In this document: piece after piece, positions 1,987 through 3,490 of the stretch
Layout: each line of letters begins with the position of its first letter
Position numbering within the stretch: the first letter of the stretch is position 1
Virus record (IMG/VR): IMGVR_UViG_2675903654_000007
Location: 1-8,736 of that record
From: a virus
Lineage: Duplodnaviria; Heunggongvirae; Uroviricota; Caudoviricetes
Strand: one strand, 5' to 3'
Length of the DNA: 8,736 bases
The notes under the pieces: generated by a model
What the model was told of the DNA's origin: nothing
What the model saw: only the letters and a program-made list of their open reading frames with translations
The model's database searches: none
Position numbers and translations under genes: made by a program

Positions 1987-3490
1987 TCTTCTCCTCCTCT
2001 GTTGATTGTCGCAGCCCGGATTCAAATGCCGCAGCCGCCCAGGTGGGCGGTTTAAGACCGGCTGCACGGCGCTCCATCGTTTCACGGACCTGCTGGGCAA
2101 AAATTTCCTGATAGTCGTCACCGCGTTTTGCGCACTCTTTCTCGTAGGTACTCAGTCCGGCTTCTATCAGCATCACCGCTTCCTGTACTTCTTTCAGACC
2201 ATCGATGGCCATACGACCGGAGCCTATCCAGTCGCAGTTCCCCCAGGCACTTCGGGCTTCCTGAAAACTGAAGCGCGCTTTTGAAGGTAACGTCACCACG
2301 CGGCGAGCGATGGCCTCTTCCAGCCAGCACAGAAACATCTGGCTCGCCTGACGGGATGCGACGAATTTTCGCCGCCCCATAAAGTACGCCCACGACTCGT
2401 TCGCACTGGCCCGTGCCGTGGAGTAGCTCATCTGGGCGTAATTCCGGGAAAGCTGCTCATACGAGACACCCAGCCCGGCAGCGATATACCGCAACAGTGA
2501 CTGCTCAAACACGGAGTAGCCGTTATCCGTGTCCTGAGCCGTCTGCAGGTTCAGTGAGTCCCCCGGCATCAGGTGCGGCACTTTTGCGCCTCCCAGACGG
2601 ACCGGTGCTGCGGCGTAATACGCGGCAATTTCACCAATCCAGCCAATGGTGGCGGCATACATCGCCTTCACAATGGCGCTCTGCAGCTGCGTGTTCTGCA
2701 GCGTGTCGAGCATCTTCATCTGCTCCATCACGCTGTAAAACACATTTGCACCGCGGGTCTGCCCGTCCTCCACGGGTTCAAAAACGTGAATGAACGAGGC
2801 GCGCCCGCCGGGTAACTCACGGGGTATCCATGTCCATTTCTGCGGCATCCAGCCAGGATACCCGTCCTCGCTGACGTAATATCCCAGCGCCGCGCCGCTG
2901 TCATTAATCTGCACACCGGCACGGCAGTTCCGGCTGTCGCCGGTATTGTTCGGGTTGCTGATGCGCTTCGGGCTGACCATCCGGAACTGTGTCCGGAACA
3001 GTCGCGATGGGCTGGTATCCCAGGTGGCCTGAACGAACAGTTCACCGTTAAAGGCATGCATGGCCACACCTTCCCGAATCATCATGGTAAACGTGCGTTT
3101 TCGCTCAACGTCAATGCAGCAGCAGTCATCCTCGGCAAACTCTTTCCATGCCGCTTCAACCTCGCGGGAAAAGGCACGGGCTTCTTCCTCCCCGATGCCC
3201 AGATAGCGCCAGCTTGGGCGATGACTGAGCCGGAAAAAAGACCCGACGATATGATCCTGATGCAGCTGGATGGCGTTGGCGGCATAGCCGTTATTGCGTA
3301 CCAGATCGTCCGCGCGGGCATTGCCACGGGTAAAGTTGGGCAGCAGGGCTGCATCCACACTTTCACCCGGTGGATTCCACGCCCGCAACTGCCCACCAAA
3401 TCCGCTGCCACCGCCGTGATAACCGGCATATTCACGCAGTGATGTCATGCCGTCCGGCCCCAGAAGGGTGGGAATGGTGGACATTTTCAT
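1967..3490 (-). CDS. B: Portal protein gpB-like (507 aa; about 26 codons shorter than lambda gpB as recalled)
   Basis: [33 protein letters not shown]... through ...[18 protein letters not shown] matches lambda portal protein end to end; start overlaps the W stop by 4 nt. Confidence 0.9.

Follow-up and report, generated by a model that had tools for sequence, protein, structure and literature searches.

A probably strain-private in-frame deletion in portal gene B of a lambda-type prophage, consistent with prophage decay

The head module and its two interrupted genes

The stretch of DNA analysed here (the window, 8,736 nt in full) very probably carries the cos-Nu1-A-W-B-C/Nu3-D-E module of a lambda-type prophage, whose host is Escherichia coli or a close relative. 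The gene order is that of the lambda head module (Nu1, A, W, portal, S49 protease/scaffold, D, and E), with all neighbours identified and collinear with lambda (Table 1), and each head-module gene downstream of cos matches its expected Pfam family. Among the records, a prophage of E. coli Z1323CEC0019 (NZ_CP148401.1, 7797-16677) comes closest, with 99.6% identity over the whole 8.7-kb window.

Table 1 Coordinates of the head-module features and of the two deletion junctions in the window.
Feature	Coordinates	Strand	Description
Window overall			Minus-strand reading collinear with lambda positions 1-6470, ~97.6-97.9% identity (DNA alignment)
cosN cohesive-end sequence GGGCGGCGACCT	6313..6324	-	Corresponds to lambda position 1
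Nu1, terminase small subunit	5590..6135	-	Intact, 181 aa; private P170S substitution
A, terminase large subunit	3690..5615	-	Intact, 641 aa
W, head-tail adaptor docking on the portal clip	3487..3693	-	Intact, 68 aa; PF02831, 126.7 bits
B, portal gene, deletion allele	1967..3490	-	507 aa instead of 533
B deletion junction, 78 nt, in frame	2644..2645	-	I282 joined directly to G309; DNA alignment and junction read-out
C, protease gene, 5' remnant	1594..1986	-	GTG start, 117 normal codons, frameshifted 13-codon tail, stop
C deletion junction, out of frame	1635..1636	-	67 nt missing plus G>A at 1635 (equivalently 68 nt lost, 1 nt gained)
Nu3 scaffold reading frame (3' part of C)	734..1339	-	Intact, 201 aa
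D, head decoration gene	392..724	-	Intact, 110 aa from the lambda start codon
E, major capsid gene, 5' end	1..336	-	Frame open to the window edge

Upstream of cos (window 6325-8736), the sequence is non-lambda and matches other E. coli prophages; it includes an Rz-type lysis gene and the gene of a small protein with a TonB_C domain. The TonB-domain protein is the product of a 113-aa ORF (6835-7176, minus strand); its N-terminus resembles a lipobox (LVMGC), and its C-terminal part is a TonB domain (PF03544, 57 bits). The ORF sits between the lysis genes and cos, presumably at about the position where lambda carries the bor moron, in a stretch of low GC (~0.40-0.46, compared with 0.53-0.61 in the head genes), and is annotated "TonB family protein" in the closest relative. 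Between this gene and Rz lies a 76-aa ORF (7837-8067, plus strand) with hydrophobic stretches, which has no Pfam match and is annotated as hypothetical in the closest relative.

The ORF between W and C corresponds to lambda gene B, with 99% identity over 507 aligned residues. PF05136 (Phage_portal_2, the lambda-family portal) matches it with 310.9 bits at a cut-off of 32.9, and residues 32-374 cover profile positions 2-354 of 354, which places the protein within the family profile. A preliminary description of this DNA, made from the sequence alone, had assigned the ORF 507 aa with gpB-like termini and given a length of 533 aa for lambda gpB; the ORF listing and our alignment agree with the former, and the latter is the length encoded by B in NC_001416 (2836..4437).

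Protein alignment with lambda gpB reveals a single internal gap of 26 residues directly after AMYAATI. The missing residues are lambda gpB 283-308 (ESELDTQSAMDFILGANSQEQRERLT), encoded by 78 nt. Both termini of the window protein are collinear with lambda and align end to end; therefore, the length difference is wholly internal and does not come from divergent termini. The internal in-frame deletion proposed in the preliminary description is thus borne out by one 78-nt gap in both the protein and the DNA alignment, and the breakpoint given there, at about 2644/2645 after AMYAATI, is exact in coordinates, residue boundaries, and length. The placement of the gap is ambiguous by 1 nt (C/G) relative to lambda and by -1..+1 relative to the closest relative. 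The flanks of the junction are identical or nearly identical to lambda for hundreds of bases on each side, and the gap is therefore not a chance pattern.

A second lesion lies ~1 kb away, in the protease gene. C starts with GTG at 1986, and its first 117 codons match those of C in the closest relative, where the gene is intact (439 aa); a frameshift then leads to a stop at 1594. Among the codons lost are those for TSDPMVDGILLDMDTPGGMVAGA in the S49 protease domain, and the out-of-frame deletion would destroy the head protease gpC. This lesion is private as well, being found neither in the closest relative nor in the best matches of the 200-2850 block, and the G>A junction base at 1635 is private relative to four references.

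Distribution and origin of the deletions

To look for the B junction elsewhere, we use a 50-mer with 25 nt on each side, which is unable to seed on the intact gene. Neither the 5,426 complete E. coli genomes searched nor the 50,697 phage records contain a match to it, and a junction 30-mer is likewise unmatched among GTDB species genomes, IMG/VR, and JGI metagenome contigs. A catalogue of 153 billion gene positions does not list this exact 507-aa protein. The 101-nt stretch that covers the deletion site in its intact form is found 4,498 times, in 3,174 of the 5,426 E. coli genomes. Each of the 80 phage matches close to full length carries a 1602-nt B and aligns as two pieces, and every best match to window 200-2850 (99.7% identity) aligns as three pieces with a span of 2,796 nt.

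The preliminary description had also considered that the gap could be a natural length variant of the portal. If so, the shorter clip would still work, as the preserved reading frame would allow. The absence of any junction match beside 4,498 intact E. coli copies, and from all 80 phages, argues against such a variant, and functional lambdoid phages show no 507-aa portals of this kind. The sole homologue cluster of 507 aa (P0006) is truncated at its C-terminus, with the segment retained, and its length is a coincidence. In all likelihood, the 78-nt deletion is a strain-private lesion and not a natural length variant, and the 507-aa allele is usable as a strain-specific marker.

Beyond the gaps in B and C, no indel separates the window from the closest relative over 8.7 kb, and, relative to four references, 6,330 nt contain only three private bases. 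One is the C junction base; the other two, at 2044 (portal A483T, lambda A509) and 5628 (Nu1 P170S, near the C-terminus), are both nonsynonymous. Therefore, the B and C deletions are probably recent, and the module is otherwise well preserved. The mismatches to the Z1323CEC0019 prophage are unevenly placed, with 32 of 34 clustered in window 232-2804. Prophages of other E. coli strains (S30, ACN001, and others) match this block at 99.7% identity, and, judged from these alignments, it is an ordinary recombination mosaic with a boundary near 2804. Local hypermutation or low sequence quality in the block is ruled out by the 99.7% matches and by the small number of private bases.

The two gaps resemble each other in size (78 and 67 nt), lie 1 kb from each other, are unique to the window, and lack flanking repeats; such a pattern could also arise from an assembly or consensus error, or from editing of the sequence, that made one or both of them. 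Near-identical lambdoid head modules are often present several times in one E. coli genome and are able to confuse assemblers (the whole window matches a median of three places per genome), and the exact protein is absent from a very large gene catalogue. However, the remainder of the 8.7 kb has no other indel relative to the closest relative, and the intact frames of Nu1, A, W, Nu3, and D together with the open part of E indicate a high consensus quality. In addition, assemblers usually break contigs at repeats and rarely excise 70-80 nt of unique sequence, and the changed base at the C junction resembles a repair scar. A non-biological origin is thus unlikely.

Taking the deletions as biological, microhomology at the breakpoints is at most 1 nt in B, and in C there is none, with one base changed at the junction. 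From this near-absence of microhomology we infer illegitimate, homology-independent joining rather than repeat slippage. Nearby direct repeats miss the ends of the gaps (ATCCAGC at 71-nt spacing in B; a 17-mer at 108-nt spacing in C), which excludes repeat-mediated slippage. Hairpin-promoted deletion is likewise rejected, as for neither strand do the deleted segments and their flanks form better folds than shuffled sequences (z -0.08 to +1.53). Escape from CRISPR targeting was considered as well and finds no support: every E. coli match to the 101-nt intact stretch covers at least 80% of its length and lies inside a portal gene, and short spacer-like matches, which are detectable only where a spacer is the best match of its genome, are absent from the E. 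coli records.

The missing segment in the portal family and in the portal structure

The alignment to lambda B and to portals of other lambdoid phages, which the preliminary description had proposed as a check, gives a single internal gap, and the segment is present in every relative examined. Apart from P0006, the full-length homologue clusters down to ~60% identity are 520-536 aa long and keep the segment. The solved portal 8VHX, at ~35-40% identity, keeps it in a form one residue shorter. For the wider family, we aligned 110 full-length representatives (28-63% identity, 511-591 aa) from an exhaustive HMMER search. The deleted columns hold 19-40 residues (median 25) in all 110 and none in the window portal. 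The lost clip stretch contains a family-wide E-S/T-x-L...G motif, with S/T at position 284 in 110 of the 110 representatives, E283 in 81, and G297 in 88, and length variation is confined to the distal part (~298-305). Because the segment is present in all comparisons, from phages to representatives of 28% identity, the deletion, as far as alignments tell, removes a universally present and partly highly conserved element.

The distal missing part (lambda 298-308) is a loop of variable length in the family, and residues 303-319 are disordered in the virion structure; both would suit a natural, functional length variant. Against it stand the 0 of 110 representatives that lack the segment, the minimum of 19 residues in the deleted columns, and the location of the most conserved clip residues, including the invariant S/T284, in the proximal half. 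Moreover, the adjacent C is frameshifted in the same element, which argues that there is no selection for head production. We therefore consider a working portal with a naturally shorter clip very improbable, and return to a private lesion.

AlphaFold2 yields a mean pLDDT of 43.0 for a full-length relative (P0002, 29-sequence alignment) and 49.9 for the window protein. As these models are too poor for mapping or fold search, we use the published cryo-EM domain boundaries. The lambda portal is divided into the wing (residues 24-249 and 368-452), stem (250-279 and 343-367), clip (280-342), and crown (453-511), and residues 303-319 form a disordered outer loop in the lambda virion structure (PMC10721106). 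On this map, the deletion corresponds to the first 26 of the 63 clip-domain residues: 20 ordered residues (283-302) and six residues of the disordered loop. The fusion joins I282, shortly after the descending stem helix ends, to G309, a residue within the flexible outer loop. The mapping onto a portal structure, also called for in the preliminary description to see whether a structural element is removed, thus identifies one, the proximal clip.

The clip binds the large terminase during packaging and the adaptor afterwards (PMC10359639). The adaptor docks on the electronegative bottom of the portal, and the C-arm of gpW pairs with portal residues 320-324 (PMC10721106). The lost stretch, as read from the sequence, contains six acidic and two basic residues, with a net charge of -4 per subunit. 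The clip forms the end of the portal protruding from the prohead, on which the terminase motor docks first and the gpW adaptor later. Since the clip contacts the large terminase and then the adaptor, the portal is probably defective, and the 507-aa protein would most likely be unable to build a working connector. Candidate steps of failure are the assembly of the dodecamer (formation of the ring or the clip), terminase docking, and gpW joining. On the other hand, the frame is kept, 11 flexible-loop residues (309-319) are left that could span the gap, and the deleted stretch is variable in length in its C-terminal half across the family, all of which speak against a loss of function. The allele may be a natural test of the role of the proximal clip (gpB 283-302) in assembly, terminase docking, and gpW joining.

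The deletion leaves untouched the wing, stem, and crown regions, which make the ring contacts, and the frame is kept. A subunit of this kind might have been exapted as a dominant-negative portal, expressed from the late operon and co-assembling with related lambdoid portals, and a stable subunit might then poison terminase docking and packaging, or gpW and tail joining, of co-resident or superinfecting phages. The intact terminase, W, Nu3, and D frames are compatible with this idea, and many E. coli carry several portals of ~95-99% identity that could mix. However, nothing suggests that this singleton allele has spread or been selected, and one deletion in three would keep the frame by chance. 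The lesion in neighbouring C does not keep it, as random decay predicts, and other E. coli singletons (P0017, P0019, and P0023) carry different internal portal deletions. Exaptation is highly unlikely, and the poisoning effect no less so; if true, it would represent an interference (assembly-poisoning) function of a prophage remnant.

State of the prophage and comparison with known portals

The locus is best explained, with good confidence, by the ordinary decay of a lambda-type prophage that acquired a recent, private in-frame deletion in B and a separate out-of-frame deletion in C. Essential virion genes are disrupted, C by a frameshift and B by the loss of 26 residues from a conserved region, which is the mark of a defective prophage; in plaque-forming phages, B and C are both intact. 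The two lesions together would leave the prophage unable to produce heads. The proposal in the preliminary description of a second head-gene lesion fitting prophage decay is supported by the private internal gap together with the frameshifted C.

By profile and by synteny, the window portal is a lambda gpB, but it lacks the complete clip of ~63 residues with the conserved E-S/T-x-L...G element; at the level of sequence, B is a damaged gpB allele. In annotation, C should accordingly be marked as a frameshifted pseudogene, and B as a damaged allele or probable pseudogene rather than an ordinary portal gene. Prophage decay of this kind is already well known, and the 507-aa allele is unrecorded in the collections searched. 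The finding does not challenge current knowledge of portals or of prophage decay, and its significance lies mainly in annotation.

Lambda gpB (NP_040583; structures 8K38, 8K39, 8XOT, and others) is likewise encoded between W and C, downstream of Nu1/A and cos, and belongs to PF05136. Compared with it, the window portal lacks residues 283-308, has G42 in place of S42, a variant also present in other E. coli portals, and carries the private A-to-T change at lambda position 509 (A483T in the window). The Z1323CEC0019 prophage, an intact lambdoid prophage, also has the non-lambda TonB-like moron and lysis genes. It carries a full 1602-nt B and a full 1320-nt C, whereas the window lacks 78 nt and 67 nt of them, respectively, and the relative is 145 nt longer. 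The portals P0017, P0019, and P0023 of E. coli are near-identical lambda-type portals with single internal deletions, each forming a one-member cluster. Their deletions are larger (~69-84 residues) and have other end points, and none has the junction of the window; erosion of the lambda-type portal gene thus seems to recur in E. coli prophages.
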